Part shown: positions 4,628 to 13,226 of the stretch, one piece after another
How positions within the stretch are numbered: the stretch's first letter is position 1
Layout of the letters: each line of letters begins with the position of its first letter
IMG/VR virus record: IMGVR_UViG_2698536480_000007
Strand: one strand, 5' to 3'
From: a virus
Lineage: Duplodnaviria; Heunggongvirae; Uroviricota; Caudoviricetes
Length of the DNA stretch: 13,226 nucleotides
Notes under the pieces: generated by a model
Database searches by the model: none
The model's input: only the letters and a program-made list of their open reading frames with translations
What the model was told of the DNA's origin: nothing
Made by a program: the position numbers and the translations under genes

Positions 4628-4764
4628 AATCTTAACTACAATATGATTCATTTTGATGATTGTTTCATAAGGAACAGTGAAGTAAGATCTAAGAGGAGTT
4701 AAATTTTATACAGTATAATCATAATATTGCAGCAAGGTGGTTATAATTGAAAGAATATTTAGAT

Positions 4765-6222
4765 ATGAATACATCTCATGTAAGAGTTGTTACTCATATG
4801 TGTGGGTTCCTGGTTTGGCTCTATAGTCTTTCAATGTTGCCACCAATGGTTGTAGCATTGTTTTATAAAGAAAAAAGCCTGTTCGTTTTCTTTATAACTT
4901 TCGTTATATTTTTTTGTATTGGTGGCGGAGCGTGGTATACAACTAAGAAATCTGGCATTCAATTACGTACCCGTGATGGGTTTATTATAATTGTAATGTT
5001 TTGGATTTTGTTTTCTGTTATTAGTGCATTCCCTTTATGGATTGACTCAGAACTTAATTTAACGTTCATTGATGCTCTGTTTGAAGGGGTTTCTGGAATA
5101 ACAACAACAGGAGCAACTGTAATTGATGATGTTAGTTCATTACCTCGGGCATATTTGTACTATCGGTCACAGTTAAATTTTATAGGTGGTTTAGGAGTTA
5201 TTGTTCTGGCGGTTGCTGTATTGCCATTATTGGGTATTGGTGGTGCAAAGCTTTATCAGTCAGAAATGCCGGGGCCATTTAAGGATGACAAACTCACTCC
5301 CCGCCTGGCCGATACGTCACGGACACTGTGGATAACTTATTCTTTATTAGGTATTGCTTGTATTGTCTGTTATAGACTTGCAGGAATGCCTTTGTTTGAT
5401 GCTATTTGTCACGGGATTTCCACAGTTTCGCTTGGTGGTTTCTCAACTCATAGCGAGAGTATCGGATATTTTAATAACTATTTGGTTGAGCTGGTGGCTG
5501 GTTCTTTTTCCCTGCTATCGGCTTTCAACTTCACTCTTTGGTATATTGTTATTAGCAGGAAAACGATAAAACCTTTAATCAGAGATATTGAACTTCGTTT
5601 CTTTCTGTTAATAGCCTTAGGGGTGATCATTGTTACCTCTTTCCAGGTCTGGCATATAGGTATGTATGACTTGCATGGAAGTTTTATTCATTCGTTTTTT
5701 CTTGCCAGCTCCATGCTCACTGATAATGGTTTAGCTACGCAGGATTATGCAAGCTGGCCCACGCACACGATAGTGTTTTTGCTGTTGTCAAGTTTCTTTG
5801 GGGGATGTATAGGTTCAACTTGTGGTGGAATTAAGTCACTTCGATTTCTTATACTTTTCAAACAAAGCAAACACGAGATAAATCAGCTTTCTCATCCCAG
5901 AGCGTTGTTGAGTGTAAATGTAGGAGGGAAGATAGTTACAGATCGTGTAATGAGGTCTGTATGGAGTTTCTTTTTTCTTTATACTCTCTTCACGGTGTTT
6001 TTTATACTGGTGTTAAATGGTATGGGATATGATTTTCTTACATCATTTGCAACAGTGGCTGCATGTATTAATAATATGGGATTAGGTTTTGGGGCTACTG
6101 CATCGTCATTCGGAGTGCTTAATGACATTGCAAAATATTTAATGTGCATAGCTATGATTCTTGGTCGCCTTGAAATTTATCCTGTTATTATATTGTTTTC
6201 AGGTTTTTTTTGGCGCTCCTAA
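4765..6222 (+). CDS. trkG: TrkG/TrkH-family potassium uptake transporter
   Basis: 485 aa from ATG 4765 (MNTSHVRVVTHMCGF...), multi-pass membrane protein with repeated GxG selectivity-filter-like segments (GISGITTTGAT, GIGGAK, SLGGFST, GLGFGAT). Matches K-12 Rac TrkG as recalled. A TTG at 4747 with better SD spacing is an alternative start. The gene is visibly AT-rich relative to its flanks. Confidence 0.85.
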   Translation: MNTSHVRVVTHMCGFLVWLYSLSMLPPMVVALFYKEKSLFVFFITFVIFFCIGGGAWYTTKKSGIQLRTRDGFIIIVMFWILFSVISAFPLWIDSELNLTFIDALFEGVSGITTTGATVIDDVSSLPRAYLYYRSQLNFIGGLGVIVLAVAVLPLLGIGGAKLYQSEMPGPFKDDKLTPRLADTSRTLWITYSLLGIACIVCYRLAGMPLFDAICHGISTVSLGGFSTHSESIGYFNNYLVELVAGSFSLLSAFNFTLWYIVISRKTIKPLIRDIELRFFLLIALGVIIVTSFQVWHIGMYDLHGSFIHSFFLASSMLTDNGLATQDYASWPTHTIVFLLLSSFFGGCIGSTCGGIKSLRFLILFKQSKHEINQLSHPRALLSVNVGGKIVTDRVMRSVWSFFFLYTLFTVFFILVLNGMGYDFLTSFATVAACINNMGLGFGATASSFGVLNDIAKYLMCIAMILGRLEIYPVIILFSGFFWRS

Positions 6223-6308: not shown

Positions 6309-6340
6309 CCCCAGTAGCACTGGCTGCTGGGGTGCGTTTT
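6309..6340 (+). terminator. intrinsic terminator downstream of trkG
   Basis: 10-bp stem CCCCAGTAGC (6309-6318) / GCTGCTGGGG (6323-6332) with one G-U pair, loop ACTG, followed by TGCGTTTTATT. Confidence 0.5.
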
Positions 6341-6359: not shown

Positions 6360-7151
6360 ATGAGCGAGAAATTAAAGATAGTCTATCGCCCATTACAAGA
6401 ATTGTCACCGTATGCGCACAACGCCAGGACGCACAGCCCTGAGCAGGTGGCACAACTGGTAGAAAGTATTAAGCAATTCGGCTGGACTAATCCGGTGCTG
6501 ATTGACGAAAAGGGCGAAATTATTGCGGGTCACGGTCGTGTTATGGCGGCTGAAATGCTCAAAATGGATTCTGTTCCGGTCATTGTTCTGTCTGGCCTGA
6601 CGGATGAGCAGAAAAAGGCGTACCGCCTGGCAGATAATCGCCTGCCGATGAATGCTGGCTGGGATGAAGATCTGTTGCGGATGGAGCTGTCGGACCTAAT
6701 CAATGCTGATTTTGATGTCTCCCTGACAGGCTTCATCCCGACAGAAATTGATGAACTGTTGACGGATGTTTTGCCCGGTACAGGAAATGAGGAGGAGCCG
6801 TATACGACGAAAATTGATACGCCTGTTTATGAGCCGTCGGGCGGTAAACCGGATATCAGTGAACTGTACGACGATACGAAAACGCAGGAGCTGATCAGCC
6901 GGATACGTTCGGCTTCCCTTGAGCCTGATATTGAGAAATTCCTCCTGTGTGCGGCAGAACGTCACACGGTGTTTAATTTCAGCAGAATTGCGGACTATTA
7001 CGCTCACGCCCCCGCTGAAATTCAGTGTTTTTTCGAGGAGTCGGCGCTGGTGATCATTGATTATCAGCAGGCTATTGAAAATGGATTTGTCCGGATGACG
7101 CAGCGCATGGTGGAGATCATGCATGGTGGTGAGGAGGAGGAATATGCGTGA
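6360..7151 (+). CDS. ParB-like nuclease-domain protein (ParB/Srx N-terminal-type domain plus unassigned acidic C-terminal region)
   Basis: 263 aa. N-terminal region ...LQELSPYAHNARTHSPEQVAQLVESIKQFGWTNPVLIDEKGEIIAGHGRVMAAE... carries the G-H-G-R type signature of ParB-like domains. K-12 Rac has a short ynaK fragment at this position (from memory). Ends in an EEEE tail whose codons form the SD for the next gene. Confidence 0.6.
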   Translation: MSEKLKIVYRPLQELSPYAHNARTHSPEQVAQLVESIKQFGWTNPVLIDEKGEIIAGHGRVMAAEMLKMDSVPVIVLSGLTDEQKKAYRLADNRLPMNAGWDEDLLRMELSDLINADFDVSLTGFIPTEIDELLTDVLPGTGNEEEPYTTKIDTPVYEPSGGKPDISELYDDTKTQELISRIRSASLEPDIEKFLLCAAERHTVFNFSRIADYYAHAPAEIQCFFEESALVIIDYQQAIENGFVRMTQRMVEIMHGGEEEEYA

Positions 7152-8076
7152 TGATTTTTGCGCCTTTATTCTGACTCACGGGCGACCGGACAAAGTTCTG
7201 ACTTACCGAACGTTGCGTCGTGCTGGCTATACCGGGAAAATTTTTATCGTTGTTGATGATGAAGATAAGACACGGCATCAGTACATGGCTGAATTTGGTG
7301 AACAGGTGCTGGTGTTTTCCAAAACCGATATCGCCAGTCGTTTTGACGAAGCCGATAATTTCTGTGACCGCCGCTCAATTTTTTACGCCCGTAATGCCTG
7401 TTTCGACCTGGCAAAACTGGTCGGGTGTAAATACTTCATTCAGCTCGATGATGATTATCACGAGTTCCAGTTTCGGGTGGATCGCAACTATGACCAGGCC
7501 TATTTTCCGATAAGGAAACTGGATGCGATCCTTTCTGAAATGCTGGCGTACTACGAATCAATACCTGCTCTTTCCATCGCTATGTCGCAGGGCGGGGATT
7601 TTCTTGGTGACAATGGCGGCCATGCTTCGTGGGTGAAACGCAAGGCAATGAACAGCTTTATCTGTTCGGTTGATCGACCGTTCTCATTCATGGGGCGCAT
7701 TAACGAGGATGTGAATACGTACACGAATCTCGGTCGCTGTGGTGAATTGTTTATGACGATCGGTGCTGTCCAGTTAGGGCAGAAACAGACGCAGAAAAAC
7801 AGCGGCGGAATGACCGAGCTGTATCTGGATTCCGGAACCTACGTTAAAAGTTTTTACTCCGTCATGTATGCGCCGTCGTGCGTAAAAATTTCACTGATGG
7901 GTGCCAGCCATAAACGCATTCACCATCAGGTCACCTGGAACAACGCTGCAGTAAAAATCCTTCACGAAAAATACAGGAAGAAGACACCCTGCATATCAAT
8001 GGGGGTGACAAATGATTCCGTATTCGAAAGTCGAGTCTCTGGCAGCGTGCCGGATGACTGCACAACAAATCGCTGA
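7144..8076 (+). CDS. hypothetical protein with GT-A-fold glycosyltransferase-like motif pattern (YdaY-position protein)
   Basis: 310 aa from ATG 7144, preceded by GAGGAGGAGG and overlapping the upstream ORF by 8 nt. Motifs AFILTHGRPD, IFIVVDDED, FIQLDDDY (DxD-like) and GRINEDVN fit the order seen in nucleotide-sugar transferases. No TM segments. Assignment from motif pattern only. The last ~25 aa look non-protein-like. Confidence 0.45.
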   Translation: MRDDFCAFILTHGRPDKVLTYRTLRRAGYTGKIFIVVDDEDKTRHQYMAEFGEQVLVFSKTDIASRFDEADNFCDRRSIFYARNACFDLAKLVGCKYFIQLDDDYHEFQFRVDRNYDQAYFPIRKLDAILSEMLAYYESIPALSIAMSQGGDFLGDNGGHASWVKRKAMNSFICSVDRPFSFMGRINEDVNTYTNLGRCGELFMTIGAVQLGQKQTQKNSGGMTELYLDSGTYVKSFYSVMYAPSCVKISLMGASHKRIHHQVTWNNAAVKILHEKYRKKTPCISMGVTNDSVFESRVSGSVPDDCTTNR

Positions 8077-8263
8077 CGTTCTGGATGTTGATCTGAACCG
8101 ACTGAAAGAAAATCGGGAAGCAATGACAGATTTTTATGCGGCCATCCGTAAGGGCAGAGCGAAAGGTGAAGCCGAGTTACGAGCGGCATTGTTTAAGCTT
8201 GCCAGAAAAGGGGATGCCTTTGCTCTGCGCGAACTACTCAGGGTGGATAAAAATCAGGACTAA
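8012..8263 (+). CDS. small helix-turn-helix-like protein, possibly terminase-small-subunit-related or regulatory
   Basis: 83 aa (69 aa if from ATG 8054): ...MTAQQIADVLDVDLNRLKENREAMTDFYAAIRKGRAKGEAELRAALFKLARKGDAFALRELL. Stop TAA 8261-8263 lies 3 nt before the next ATG. From 8012 it overlaps the upstream ORF by 65 nt, so the true start is uncertain. Confidence 0.35.
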   Translation: MIPYSKVESLAACRMTAQQIADVLDVDLNRLKENREAMTDFYAAIRKGRAKGEAELRAALFKLARKGDAFALRELLRVDKNQD

Positions 8264-8266
8264 CTG

Positions 8267-9031
8267 ATGAGCAGACCGGACTGGGGGGCGTTGCAGCAGG
8301 AGTATATTGCTGAATACACCCGCTCCGGTATATCTCCGGTGGCATGGTGTGAAGCAAGGGGACTGAATTACGCAACAGCCCGTCGTTACATCAAAAAAAC
8401 TCCGAAAAATGCGCAGACAGAAATGCGCAAAACTGCGCAAAAAAGTGCGCAGAAAAAATCTGCGCAGACTGCACAAAAGCGGAACGAAAAATCTCAGGAA
8501 AAAAAGCCAGTATTCGATGCGGGCCTGAATGAGGGCGACGCGGAGGAATTTTCGTTCTGTCCCGATGAATTCGGCATTTCTGACCAGCAGGCTAAGTTTG
8601 CGATGCTTGTTGCTCAGGGTAAAAAGCCGACAGAGGCGTACCGACTAATGGGGCTTCGTGAAGAGATTCAGTCAGAGGTTGCCGCTGCTTTTGATGAGGA
8701 TTTAGCGGACGCCGTGAGTGATTTTTCTGGTTCTTACGTTACGCACCGGCACTGGGATCCTGTGACGGAAACTGGCGGCGAATCCACCGCAATCTATACC
8801 GGGCGAGGCGTGTTGACACGTTATAAGCTGGGCAGAATTGATGGGATTAATATTTTGCATGGTGACCTTAAATTAACCGCTCTGGTATGCGAGGTTACGG
8901 ATAAACCAGCTGTCGACCATATTATTGAGATTTATGATCCTGTATCAAGGCAGTTACAACGATACGAGGTAATTACAGCAAGTGTAGATCCTTCCGCATC
9001 AGTTTACTCTATCCAGTTAAGGAGAGCGTAA
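8267..9031 (+). CDS. chimeric ORF: terminase-small-subunit-like N-terminal region fused to a head-tail joining (adaptor)-like C-terminal region
   Basis: 254 aa. N-terminal HTH-like segments (SGISPVAWCEARGLNYATARRYIKK and ISDQQAKFAMLVAQGKKPTEAYRLMG) separated by a K/Q/A-rich linker. C-terminal ~95 aa (…HIIEIYDPVSRQLQRYEVITASVDPSASVYSIQLRRA) resembles head-tail adaptor proteins by pattern. Followed directly by tail genes with no terminase large subunit, portal or capsid ORFs. Confidence 0.45.
   Translation: MSRPDWGALQQEYIAEYTRSGISPVAWCEARGLNYATARRYIKKTPKNAQTEMRKTAQKSAQKKSAQTAQKRNEKSQEKKPVFDAGLNEGDAEEFSFCPDEFGISDQQAKFAMLVAQGKKPTEAYRLMGLREEIQSEVAAAFDEDLADAVSDFSGSYVTHRHWDPVTETGGESTAIYTGRGVLTRYKLGRIDGINILHGDLKLTALVCEVTDKPAVDHIIEIYDPVSRQLQRYEVITASVDPSASVYSIQLRRA
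8410..8475 (+). repeat. cluster of palindromic TGCGCA hexamers phased with A-tracts
   Basis: TGCGCA at 8410, 8424, 8434, 8446 and 8461 plus variant TGCACA at 8470, each preceded by A-runs. Encodes the linker ...NAQTEMRKTAQKSAQKKSAQTAQK. Confidence 0.6.
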
Positions 9032-10837: not shown

Positions 10838-11299
10838 ATGAGGTTATGGATGTTTATTCTTAATCAGAAAATTATCATTGGTGGAGAACGCTGGTTTACG
10901 CCAATGAAGGACTTAAAACCTGTAGACGGGTTAAAACTGTTGGTGGCAAGCAGCGATAACGATCAGTATCGCTCCCGTAATGCATTAATCCGTCGCCACA
11001 TTGAGAAAATGGATGCCAGTTTGCACGTCGGAACGAAGGAGTTTGATATTTCAAAGGTTTCCGAGGTGGATTCTGTTGATGATTTACTCATTGATAATGC
11101 CGCTCGTTATCTGCTGAAAGACTGGAAAGGGGTTGGTGAACTGGTTAATGGTGTTGAGGTTGCACTGGAATATACGGCAGAACGAGGGATCGCGCTGCTT
11201 AAGCAGAATCCAGAGTTGTACTGGCAGATCCTTGCAGAAGCAGCCAGCATCGCCCAGGGTAAAGAGCAGCAGAAGCAGGATACGATAAAAAAGCCATAG
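10838..11299 (+). CDS. tail assembly chaperone (lambda gpG analogue)
   Basis: 153-aa acidic protein ending ...DTIKKP with the slippery heptamer A-AAA-AAG (11287-11293) two codons before its stop. Start could instead be an internal Met. Confidence 0.6.
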   Translation: MRLWMFILNQKIIIGGERWFTPMKDLKPVDGLKLLVASSDNDQYRSRNALIRRHIEKMDASLHVGTKEFDISKVSEVDSVDDLLIDNAARYLLKDWKGVGELVNGVEVALEYTAERGIALLKQNPELYWQILAEAASIAQGKEQQKQDTIKKP

Positions 11300-11772: not shown

Positions 11773-12642
11773 ATGGCAGAGCAAACCTCGCGTCTCGCAA
11801 TAATTATTGATAGCACTGGAGCGAAAAATAATGCTGACAATCTGACCTCCTCATTAGTCAAAATGACGCAGGCTGGGGAAACTGCTGCAAATAGCGCAGG
11901 GAAAGTGACTAAGGCAACAGAAGATGAGAAGAACGCGCTCGCAAAATTAAAAGCAGCTATTGATCCAGTTGGTGCCGCAATTGATACTGTCGGTCGACGC
12001 TATTCTGAATTAAAGAAATTTTTCGATAAAGGGCTTATTGATAAAGAAGAATATGAATTTCTTGTCCGTAAACTTAATGAAACCACAGAGGAATTGAGCG
12101 GGGTTGCGCAAGCGCAGAGAGAAGCCGAGAAGGCCGGAAAACTTGCTGCCGCCCAGCAGGAAGCGCAGGCTCAGGCCTTTCAAAGAATGCTGGACAAGAT
12201 CGACCCTCTGGCTGCGGCGCTAAGAAATCTTGAACAACAGCATGATGAACTTAATGCTGCGTTTGCATCCGGGAAAATAAATGGTTCTCAGTTTGAGAAT
12301 TATAGCCGAAAAATACAGGAAACACGGCGAGAGCTTACCGGAGAGGCTCAGGCAGAGCGAGAAGCAGCAAAAGCGCATGATGAACAGGTTGTTGCTTTGC
12401 AACGTCTGATTGGTCTGGGCATTGGCACGATGGCGAATACGAACTCTGCTGGCGCGCATACCCACTCACTGTCCGGCACTGCTGCAAGCGCAGGTGCACA
12501 CGCACATACTGTCGGTATTGGTGCTCATACGCACTCCGTTGCGATTGGTTCACATGGACACACCATCACCGTTAACGCTGCTGGTAACGCGGAAAACACC
12601 GTCAAAAACATCGCATTTAACTATATTGTGAGGCTTGCATAA
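11773..12642 (+). CDS. chimeric ORF: tape-measure-like N-terminal coiled-coil region fused in frame to the C-terminal receptor-binding tip of a lambda Stf-type side tail fibre
   Basis: 289 aa. N-terminus [20 protein letters not shown]... and helical Q/A/E-rich repeats fit a tape-measure N-terminus and position. The last ~65 aa ([66 protein letters not shown]) match the lambda Stf / T4 gp37-type HxH tip from memory. Stop TAA 12640-12642 overlaps the tfa ATG. Confidence 0.55.
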
Positions 12643-13226
12643 TGGCATTCAGAATGAGTGAACAACCACGGACCATAAAAATTTATAATCTGCTGGCCGG
12701 AACTAATGAATTTATTGGTGAAGGTGATGCATATATTCCGCCTCATACAGGTCTGCCAGCAAACAGTACCGATATTGCACCGCCAGATATTCCGGCAGGC
12801 TTCGTGGCTGTTTTCAACAGTGATGAGTCATCGTGGCATCTCGTTGAAGATCATCGGGGTAAAACGGTTTATGACGTGGCTTCCGGCGACGCGTTATTTA
12901 TTTCTGAACTCGGTCCGTTACCGGAAAATGTTACCTGGTTATCGCCGGAAGGGGAGTTTCAGAAGTGGAACGGCACAGCCTGGGTGAAGGATACGGAAGC
13001 AGAAAAACTGTTCCGGATCCGGGAGGCGGAAGAAACAAAAAACAACCTGATGCAGGTAGCCAGTGAGCATATTGCGCCGCTTCAGGATGCTGCAGATCTG
13101 GAAATTGCAACGGAGGAAGAAATCTCGTTGCTGGAAGCATGGAAAAAGTATCGGGTATTGCTGAACCGTGTTGATACGTCAACTGCACCTGATATTGAGT
13201 GGCCTACGAACCCTGTCAGGGAGTAA
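12642..13226 (+). CDS. tfa: tail fibre assembly protein Tfa (lambda-type)
   Basis: 194 aa [51 protein letters not shown]..., near-identical to lambda Tfa as recalled. Follows the Stf C-terminal tip. Confidence 0.85.

Follow-up and report, generated by a model that had tools for sequence, protein, structure and literature searches.

A translationally coupled ParB-like protein and TAGT-family glycosyltransferase of a Rac-type prophage: a candidate DNA glycosylation module with a conserved partner unit

Glycosyltransferases (GTs) of the TAGT family (TET-associated glycosyltransferase) include the phage T2/T6 enzyme that adds a second glucose to glucosylated 5-hydroxymethylcytosine (5hmC); the family is modelled as GT-A, sister to GT2, and its characterised members act on DNA (PMC13216743). 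The same study counted "solitary TAGTs", whose function it called yet to be defined, in 288 of 753 phage genomes. ParB-like proteins, for their part, were first placed in DNA hypermodification gene clusters by Iyer et al. 2013 (NAR 41:7635; cited in PMC8256090 and PMC13229309), who also defined TAGT, and one from a phage activates, in a cognate-specific manner, a thymine dioxygenase subclass that needs it for activity on double-stranded DNA (5mYOX176/ParB176; O'Toole et al., PNAS 2026, PMC13229309). Here we describe a locus in which proteins of these two kinds are encoded side by side. It lies in a 13,226-nt stretch of DNA, hereafter the window (IMG/VR record IMGVR_UViG_2698536480_000007), which is the late region of a Rac-type lambdoid Escherichia coli prophage, and it consists of two open reading frames (ORFs): ORF A, with a ParB/Srx-type head, and ORF B, a TAGT-family GT. 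An earlier note on this DNA had known of no assigned function for such a pairing, which overstated the case: ORF B falls in Pfam PF20691 (TAGT), and ParB-like proteins had already been tied to hypermodification. Our comparisons indicate that the C-terminal part of ORF A, rather than its ParB-like head, is the constant companion of the enzyme.

The gene pair, its two proteins and their neighbourhoods

ORF B (7144-8076, + strand; 310 aa) encodes a predicted GT-A fold enzyme of the TAGT family. PF20691 matches residues 8-222 (3e-35; 122.5 bits against a cut-off of 27.5), a catalytic core encoded at 7165-7809 (+ strand), and is present in all 120 ORF B homologues listed. When the protein was compared with viral structure models, the best matches were phage TAGT proteins, with template modelling (TM) scores of 0.75-0.82. 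Invariant in 47 homologues are R14, D38/D41, the DxD-type motif D102-D103-D104-Y105 (7447-7458, + strand) and N187/D189/V190, with E188 nearly so. These residues fit the R...DDD...ED active-site pattern known from GT-A enzymes that modify phage DNA and from JGT, the base-J glucosyltransferase (bioRxiv 10.1101/2023.12.21.572611). ORF B can thus be classified by sequence as a GT-A fold nucleotide-sugar transferase with intact catalytic motifs, and the soluble GT-A transferase that the earlier note had recognised from four motifs, all of them conserved, is borne out.

The PHROG match of ORF B, phrog_842 (7e-104), bears the name "beta-glucosyl-HMC-alpha-glucosyltransferase". We nevertheless rejected ORF B as an orthologue of the T2/T6 enzyme, as this label would have it: no T-even phage is among the 36 records that ORF B matched by tblastn in 50,697 phage records (E 1e-5), and carrying genomes hold neither a dCMP hydroxymethylase nor an alpha-GT. 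The name is an over-transferred label. Fusions in ORF B relatives bring in an N-terminal P-loop kinase-like domain, a class-I S-adenosylmethionine (SAM) methyltransferase (MTase), a sulfotransferase or a second TAGT (P0270, P0306, P0319, P0248, P0250, P0284 and P0268; L147 3581-5275; L116 189-1739); ParB is not among the N-terminal extensions of TAGT relatives, which are P-loop kinases, a methyltransferase and a second GT. The last ~22-25 aa of ORF B itself (7996-8076, residues ~285-310) form an E. coli-specific tail that is missing in most homologues, is modelled with low confidence and overlaps the next small ORF (8012/8054-8263). A defence system was considered and rejected, PADLOC giving no match for ORF B and matching ORF A only via the ParB-like N-terminus of an MTase model.

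ORF A (6360-7151, + strand; ATG 6360, TGA 7149-7151; 263 aa) encodes the partner, or adaptor, protein and is the full-length form of K-12 ynaK. Pfam, Foldseek and hidden Markov model (HMM) alignment agree on a ParB/Srx-type fold, of the kind that binds nucleoside triphosphates (NTPs), followed by a short helical extension, in residues 1-136 (6360..6767, + strand), and the ParB/Srx N-terminal domain proposed earlier is thereby confirmed. Pfam PF02195 (ParB_N) covers residues 23-90 (28.9 bits against a cut-off of 26.3), and phrog_620 matches the protein at 1e-90. A Foldseek search with an AlphaFold2 (AF2) model of the N-terminal domain returned Noc, ParB-CDP, KorB, PadC and sulfiredoxin at E values from 7e-7 to 1e-2, the Noc, ParB, KorB and PadC matches lying at about 1e-6. 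In the HMM alignment, G57-H-G-R60 is placed on the GERR of ParB/Noc, with one GERR Arg changed to Gly, while D92-N93 aligns to the E-N helix motif of Noc/ParB; the residues of both are invariant in 45 homologues. The same region is matched by phrog_498, "DNA methyltransferase" (residues 3-141, 1e-50), and by PADLOC MTase_II (residues 10-144, 2.5e-38), so that by homology the first ~140 residues of ORF A are the N-terminal module of phage ParB-DNA-methyltransferase fusions. That ORF A might be a canonical partition ParB was rejected: a Pfam scan finds neither a helix-turn-helix (HTH) domain nor a ParB C-terminal dimerisation domain, TIGR00180 reaches 38.4 bits, under its cut-off of 58.45, parA is lacking from 41.7 kb of intact Rac prophage, and a search for parS-like repeats around the pair gave only short, chance-level matches.

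Beyond the head, an acidic, variable linker (residues 137-166), predicted to be disordered, contains the linear motif Y148-T-T-K-I-D-T-P-V-Y-E-P-S160 (6801..6839, + strand; predicted local distance difference test, pLDDT, about 31 in the AF2 model). Y148, P155, Y157 and E158 are invariant over a range that runs from E. coli through Lactobacillus phages to a haloarchaeal virus, and distant homologues share the consensus Y-[ST]-x-K-[IV]-x-x-P-x-Y-E-P (ORF A residues 148-159); full-length homologues from distant cultured viruses, at 39-42% identity, keep this motif as well as the residues of the C-terminal domain. The motif may be a docking peptide or an acceptor. It is followed by a helical C-terminal domain (residues ~166-255; 6855..7124, + strand), and we call linker motif and helical domain together (residues ~145-255) ACterm. 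No Pfam family exists for this unit, PHROG matches it only with the C-terminal end of phrog_620, and the protein collection contains over 7000 stand-alone relatives, all devoid of a Pfam domain and unnamed. What the earlier note had set aside as an unassigned acidic half turns out to be a conserved cognate GT partner and the most informative part of the protein.

This view rests on a consistent gene order. Both halves of ORF A lie directly upstream of the TAGT gene in 80 of 80 IMG/VR loci whose ORF B is 73-100% identical to ours. In a species-level scan of 80 loci, one genome per species, ACterm is found immediately upstream of TAGT, mostly overlapping it, in all 78 with upstream sequence, and these loci span Proteobacteria, Bacteroidota, Firmicutes, Veillonella, Acidobacteriota, Kiritimatiellae, bacteria of the Candidate Phyla Radiation (CPR) and one archaeon. 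The reverse search, from ACterm, finds TAGT as the next gene in 70 of 78 informative viral loci and within three genes in the other 8. Among cultured viruses, the pair directly precedes the terminase genes in Lactobacillus phages phi jlb1 and c5, Nocardia phage NTR1 and haloarchaeal virus HHTV-2, and it is also present in Vibrio phage pv27; in c5 it forms ORF1 and ORF2, right after cos. The pattern extends to loci with tandem duplicates, in which every ACterm subtype keeps the matching TAGT subtype behind it, including where the two pairs have traded places: TAGT sequences of the subtype linked to short ACterm are 59-67% identical to one another and those of the other subtype 55-75%, while between the subtypes the figure is 23-28%. 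Taken together, the synteny data make ACterm an obligate partner, cognate to its enzyme, for this clade of TAGT in viruses of both bacteria and archaea. The profile and structure searches and the synteny check that the earlier note had proposed found its motifs conserved and the two genes syntenic in every related locus examined, and none of the outcomes that it had named as refuting came about.

Some details of the partner genes are worth recording. The tandem ACterm-TAGT pairs occur at L152 6460-8906, L186 4807-7207 and L197 5932-8416, where the second, shorter ACterm subtype retains only the YYEP/YYTP core of the linear motif. One partner protein has an MTase-ParBN-ACterm architecture. A natural fusion of ACterm to TAGT was not found among 142 representative TAGT proteins.

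In the window, the two genes overlap by 8 nt, ATGCGTGA, as can be read directly from the sequence. A Shine-Dalgarno-like element, GAGGAGGAGGAA (7131..7142, + strand), lies within the 3' end of ORF A and would serve ORF B; it includes GAGGAGGAGG at 7131-7140, 3 nt ahead of ATG 7144. While a second in-frame ATG lies upstream at 7123, the start at 7144 is favored because all homologues begin M-R-D-D-F. Overlapping or abutting ends of the pair are also seen in phages c5, phi jlb1 and NTR1 and in virus HHTV-2. Against prophage variants, the ratio of nonsynonymous to synonymous substitution rates (dN/dS) is 0.06-0.16 across ORF A and ORF B (0.09-0.16 for ORF A), which means purifying selection on both, and at least 80% of the length of the pair is found in 889 of 5426 complete E. 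coli genomes. The earlier description of two translationally coupled genes, with ATG 7144 inside the upstream ORF, therefore stands, and both genes are real.

While ParB-N is usually fused to ACterm, it is dispensable: many viruses encode a stand-alone ACterm of ~130 aa. In the loci examined, the pair is placed only in DNA-packaging or DNA-replication neighbourhoods, and the two architectures divide between them. The ParB-fused form heads the packaging block. The large terminase subunit gene, terL, is the second or third gene past TAGT in at least 38 of 59 loci, and portal genes come after it. TerL beside the pair belongs to at least four families (Terminase_6N, Terminase_3, GpA and TerL_ATPase); the linkage is therefore to the start or timing of the packaging block and not to one terminase type. 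The stand-alone form sits instead inside replication modules, beside DnaN-like clamps. On a 145-kb contig, for example, gene calls read DnaB, primase, PolA, DnaN-like clamp, a small ORF, ACterm, TAGT and TAGT, with RecA and a clamp loader further along. A DnaN-like clamp occurs in the flanks of 25 of 75 stand-alone loci compared with 0 of 70 ParB-fused loci, and for PolA the figures are 29 of 75 and 0 of 70.

The bacterial beta-clamp-binding motif is QL[SD]LF. In 115 of 120 stand-alone ACterm proteins, the N-terminal leader that precedes the Y...P.Y motif carries a conserved [LIMV]F, which resembles such a clamp-binding peptide. The full Q-x-x-[LM]-F is seen in 11 of 120 proteins of one sample and in 30 of 50 unique IMG/VR sequences, and a strict QxxLF clamp motif for the whole stand-alone family was rejected on these numbers. 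Other genes sometimes join the cassette: class-I SAM methyltransferases, a sulfotransferase, a P-loop kinase, radical SAM and CofD-like proteins, a cytidylyltransferase and an epimerase. Their predicted activities suggest tailoring of the sugar. In some viral contigs, such enzymes stand between ACterm and TAGT, namely a radical SAM protein, a CofD-like transferase, or a protein combining a histidine-phosphatase and a cytidylyltransferase (L174 5712-6692, L184 6353-7342, L190 2845-4563, L193 3107-4780 and L236 2034-3029); these hint at more elaborate, possibly phospho-linked, modifications.

Proposed mechanism and rival explanations

We propose, with a probability of about 0.5, that the pair is a DNA-tethered DNA glycosylation module. 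ORF B would be its catalytic subunit, a metal- and nucleotide-sugar-dependent transferase, and ORF A a dedicated adaptor whose C-terminal unit binds or activates its own TAGT. The NTP-binding ParB/Srx head of ORF A would put the complex on double-stranded DNA, a tethering role we favor because the head is shared with ParB-MTase fusions, has the ParB CTPase fold and keeps GxxR. For stand-alone ACterm, it would be the replisome clamp, in place of a ParB head, that carries the complex to DNA. In Rac-type phages, the pair is probably read in the late transcript under Q antitermination, just before terS and terL, since it lies downstream of the lysis genes and the trkG insert and directly before terS. 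The phage genome would then be glycosylated after replication, just before or during packaging, and the pay-off would most plausibly be a blunting of host restriction or of other DNA-targeting defences at the next infection. Of the roles suggested in the earlier note, modification tied to DNA or to packaging has the strongest support. A bolder version of the proposal, which we hold only tentatively, is TET-independent: a clamp-tethered GT-A enzyme would sugar-tag a canonical base, the backbone or the DNA ends without any hydroxymethylation, and the modular adaptor would plug either into a ParB-type NTP switch (packaging-coupled) or into the replisome beta-clamp (replication-coupled).

Several observations weigh against DNA glycosylation, and most of them concern the base that would be primed for the sugar. 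Neither a TET/JBP dioxygenase nor a thymidylate-synthase-like hydroxymethylase was found in the complete genomes of c5 (31.8 kb, with 10 of its 11 unannotated ORFs longer than 100 aa included in the scan) and of phi jlb1 (38.3 kb), and both are lacking from the 41.7 kb of intact Rac prophage. Nor are these enzymes recurrent in the ~160 locus flanks, for which the 25 commonest families were displayed and single occurrences are possible. The TET/JBP association on which the name of the TAGT family is based is therefore not seen for the pair in Rac, c5, phi jlb1 or the flanks. To our knowledge, all characterised DNA glycosyltransferases of this type need 5hmC, 5-hydroxymethyluracil (5hmU) or a sugar on them. 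In a New England Biolabs (NEB) survey, GT contigs lacking 5mYOX or ThyS were considered less obvious candidates for DNA modification (bioRxiv 10.1101/2023.12.21.572611), and GREB1, a protein with a TAGT-type domain, O-GlcNAcylates oestrogen receptor alpha, ER-alpha (PMC7968844). In the dioxygenase system, attempts to trap a stable ParB-enzyme complex failed, and changing NTP-binding residues by mutation made little difference (PMC13229309). The searchable literature holds no report of a modified base in Rac-like, c5-like or HHTV-2 DNA. As for the tether, ORF A has no recognisable DNA-binding domain, the model of its C-terminal domain is of low confidence (pLDDT 40-79), and the proposed clamp contact of stand-alone ACterm is drawn from motif resemblance.

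The main rival is that a protein, not DNA, is glycosylated: a virion or packaging protein, a host protein, or ORF A itself at the Tyr, Thr or Ser of its linker motif, in which case ORF A would be substrate or scaffold. The activity of GREB1 and the lack of a hydroxymethyl-base pathway with the pair speak for this, as do the position of the pair next to structural genes in prophages and the presence of a disordered motif with an invariant Tyr in the partner. Yet many viruses carry the pair in a replisome module, far from structural genes, the fused N-terminal module is that of DNA methyltransferases, and the pair is linked to packaging genes whichever family their terminase belongs to; we regard protein glycosylation as unlikely, though the strongest of the alternatives. 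A poorer prospect still is that ORF B is the second-step enzyme of a classical hydroxymethyl-pyrimidine pathway encoded elsewhere, or a decaying remnant of one. ORF B does belong to PF20691 and phrog_842, some relatives carry a fused P-loop kinase, an arrangement also known from pathways of thymidine hypermodification, and ParB, GT and terminase genes often co-occur with 5mYOX in metaviromes. However, the enzymes of such a pathway are absent from the complete carrying genomes and from the Rac stretch, the tblastn result at E 1e-5 does not make ORF B a close T2/T6 orthologue, and a remnant would sit badly with strong purifying selection and with a pair kept together across domains of life.

It is about equally improbable that the pair serves packaging or partition, with ORF A as a ParB-like nuclease or organiser of the pac site and ORF B in a structural, regulatory or small-molecule role, for example in making a nucleotide-derived defence signal. 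The conserved position just upstream of terS and terL would suit this, databases label ORF A a "ParB-like partition nuclease", and a link between ParB and packaging was proposed by Aravind and co-workers, as cited in PMC8256090. Against it, the constant element is the ACterm-TAGT couple, which is found as well in loci that lack ParB-N and are not close to terminase genes; the GT motifs for catalysis do not vary; no parA, HTH domain or parS-like repeat is found near the pair; and ORF B is without a PADLOC match. A similarly small share of our belief lies outside all four of these readings.

The window prophage and its relation to K-12

The genes of the window follow the order ninB-like, DUF1364, Q-like, two tRNAs, lysis cassette, trkG, ORF A, ORF B, terS and tail genes. 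The tRNA genes, tRNA-Thr(tgt) at 1795-1870 and tRNA-Gly(tcc) at 1874-1948, follow the Q-like gene and precede the lysis cassette. The trkG insert (4747-6222), of low G+C content (GC), separates the Rz gene from ORF A. A consensus scan predicts a terminator-like GC-rich hairpin with a T-rich tail at its end (6309..6332, + strand), 28 nt before the start of ORF A. A recent acquisition of the pair as a moron, in the manner of trkG, was rejected, as the GC of the pair matches the phage backbone (48-51%) and that of trkG (33-41%) does not.

Downstream of ORF B, in a packaging context, come a small ORF (8054-8263, + strand), whose frame is open back to ATG 8012, and, from 8267 (+ strand; context block 8054..8648), the 5' part of terS; the block gives terminase small subunit matches to phrog_309 and phrog_51. 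Junction alignment reveals that the 254-aa ORF at 8267-9031 is a chimera in which this 5' part is joined, at ~8648-8650, to a head-closure gene. The missing segment, present in comparison strain 14EC029, is ~8.6 kb long (an IS4 insertion included) and holds the terL, portal, minor head, scaffold and capsid genes; the intact gene order downstream of the pair can be seen in vB_EcoS-683R6 and in 14EC029. Because the deletion took terL, portal and capsid genes, the window prophage is defective and cannot package DNA, though its ParB-TAGT pair is intact. The earlier suggestion of an intact module thus holds for the pair and fails for the prophage around it. Within the terS coding region, TGCGCAGA-type direct repeats cluster at 8405-8469 and encode a repetitive K/A/Q peptide; the cluster may be a pac or TerS recognition site. 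Further along, the translation of a 289-aa ORF (11773-12642) combines a tape-measure-like N-terminus with a tail-fibre-like C-terminus containing GAHTHS-type repeats, which may reflect a second large deletion; a tail-fibre-assembly-like ORF (12642-13226) follows directly.

The K-12 gene ynaK corresponds to the first 254 nt of ORF A, and a deletion fuses it at nt 254 straight to the tail gene ydaY (L250 2745-3104), so that the GT gene is wholly absent. ydaY itself corresponds to the C-terminal 116 residues, 100% identical, of a 153-aa ORF in the tail region of the window (10838-11299). Of the two K-12 genes that the earlier note had given as fragments retained here, ynaK is a fragment of the pair, whereas ydaY derives from a tail-region gene and holds no remnant of the GT.

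Significance and comparison with known systems

Both proteins belong to known superfamilies and are not categorically new. In the accessible literature, three aspects nevertheless seem to be: ACterm as the obligate cognate partner of a TAGT clade, although Iyer et al. 2013 may have mentioned TET-less ParB-TAGT pairs; the interchangeable tethering heads of ACterm; and the fact that the pair clearly does without hydroxymethyl-pyrimidine synthesis. Literature searches on ynaK/ydaY, on HHTV-2 and on glucosyl-HMC combined with ParB returned nothing relevant, and a broad 2025 survey of ParB-fold proteins leaves glycosyltransferases unmentioned. The module gives solitary TAGTs a defining signature, an obligate cognate partner with interchangeable DNA-tethering heads, in a field where GT contigs without a base-priming enzyme number in the thousands (bioRxiv 10.1101/2023.12.21.572611). 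It also offers an experimental handle, as Rac-type prophages and many natural isolates carry the pair, whereas K-12 is without the enzyme and has only 254 nt of ORF A. Should DNA prove to be the target, the licensing of DNA-modifying enzymes by ParB, reported in 2026, would extend from dioxygenases to glycosyltransferases, and DNA glycosylation without hydroxymethyl-pyrimidines would come into view; were the TET-independent version true, about one in six complete E. coli genomes would carry a prophage able to make an undescribed DNA modification. If protein is the target, the pair would represent a widespread phage protein-glycosylation system. Either outcome would correct the misleading database labels "partition protein" and "beta-glucosyl-HMC-alpha-glucosyltransferase".

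With respect to the TAGT family, that is, the T2/T6 enzyme, phage 5hmC GT-A enzymes, trypanosome JGT and GREB1, ORF B shares the Pfam domain, the GT-A fold, the R...DDD...ED pattern and viral origin. It differs from T2/T6 and their relatives in forming a separate clade that is always accompanied by ACterm, with no alpha-GT or beta-GT, dCMP hydroxymethylase or TET/JBP enzyme. This clade corresponds to the solitary TAGTs of PMC13216743, and also to most of the GT contigs that the NEB survey set aside as having no 5mYOX or ThyS neighbour.

As for ORF A, fusions of ParB-N to DNA methyltransferases in phages were noted by Kaljevic et al. 2025 (PMC12704722). They have a homologous stretch of ~140 N-terminal residues and a prophage location in common with ORF A, in which, however, linker and ACterm replace the MTase domain and the enzyme is a separate, translationally coupled polypeptide. 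For stand-alone ACterm beside DnaN-like clamps, a working analogy is the T4 alpha-glucosyltransferase, which binds the gp45 sliding clamp (Sommer 2004; confirmed in PMC13216743); in contrast to the system proposed here, that enzyme has a GT-B fold, binds the clamp directly, with no adaptor, and acts on 5hmC.

The likeness to 5mYOX176/ParB176 extends to several levels. In both systems, a ParB-like gene lies next to that of a cognate DNA-modifying enzyme (for ORF B, a predicted one), and ORF A has the same layout as ParB176: an NTP-binding domain, short helices, a disordered linker of ~30 aa and a C-terminal domain, with no DNA-binding domain. By architecture and adjacency, ORF A/ORF B thus has the features of a ParB-activated pair, namely a ParB-like protein devoid of a DNA-binding domain beside its cognate enzyme. 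The dioxygenase, moreover, is a post-replicative enzyme with terminase and GT genes as common neighbours. In contrast, the enzyme of the pair described here is a glycosyltransferase, with no dioxygenase, and the C-terminal domain of its partner, compared with that of ParB176 by layout, is also found as a stand-alone protein.

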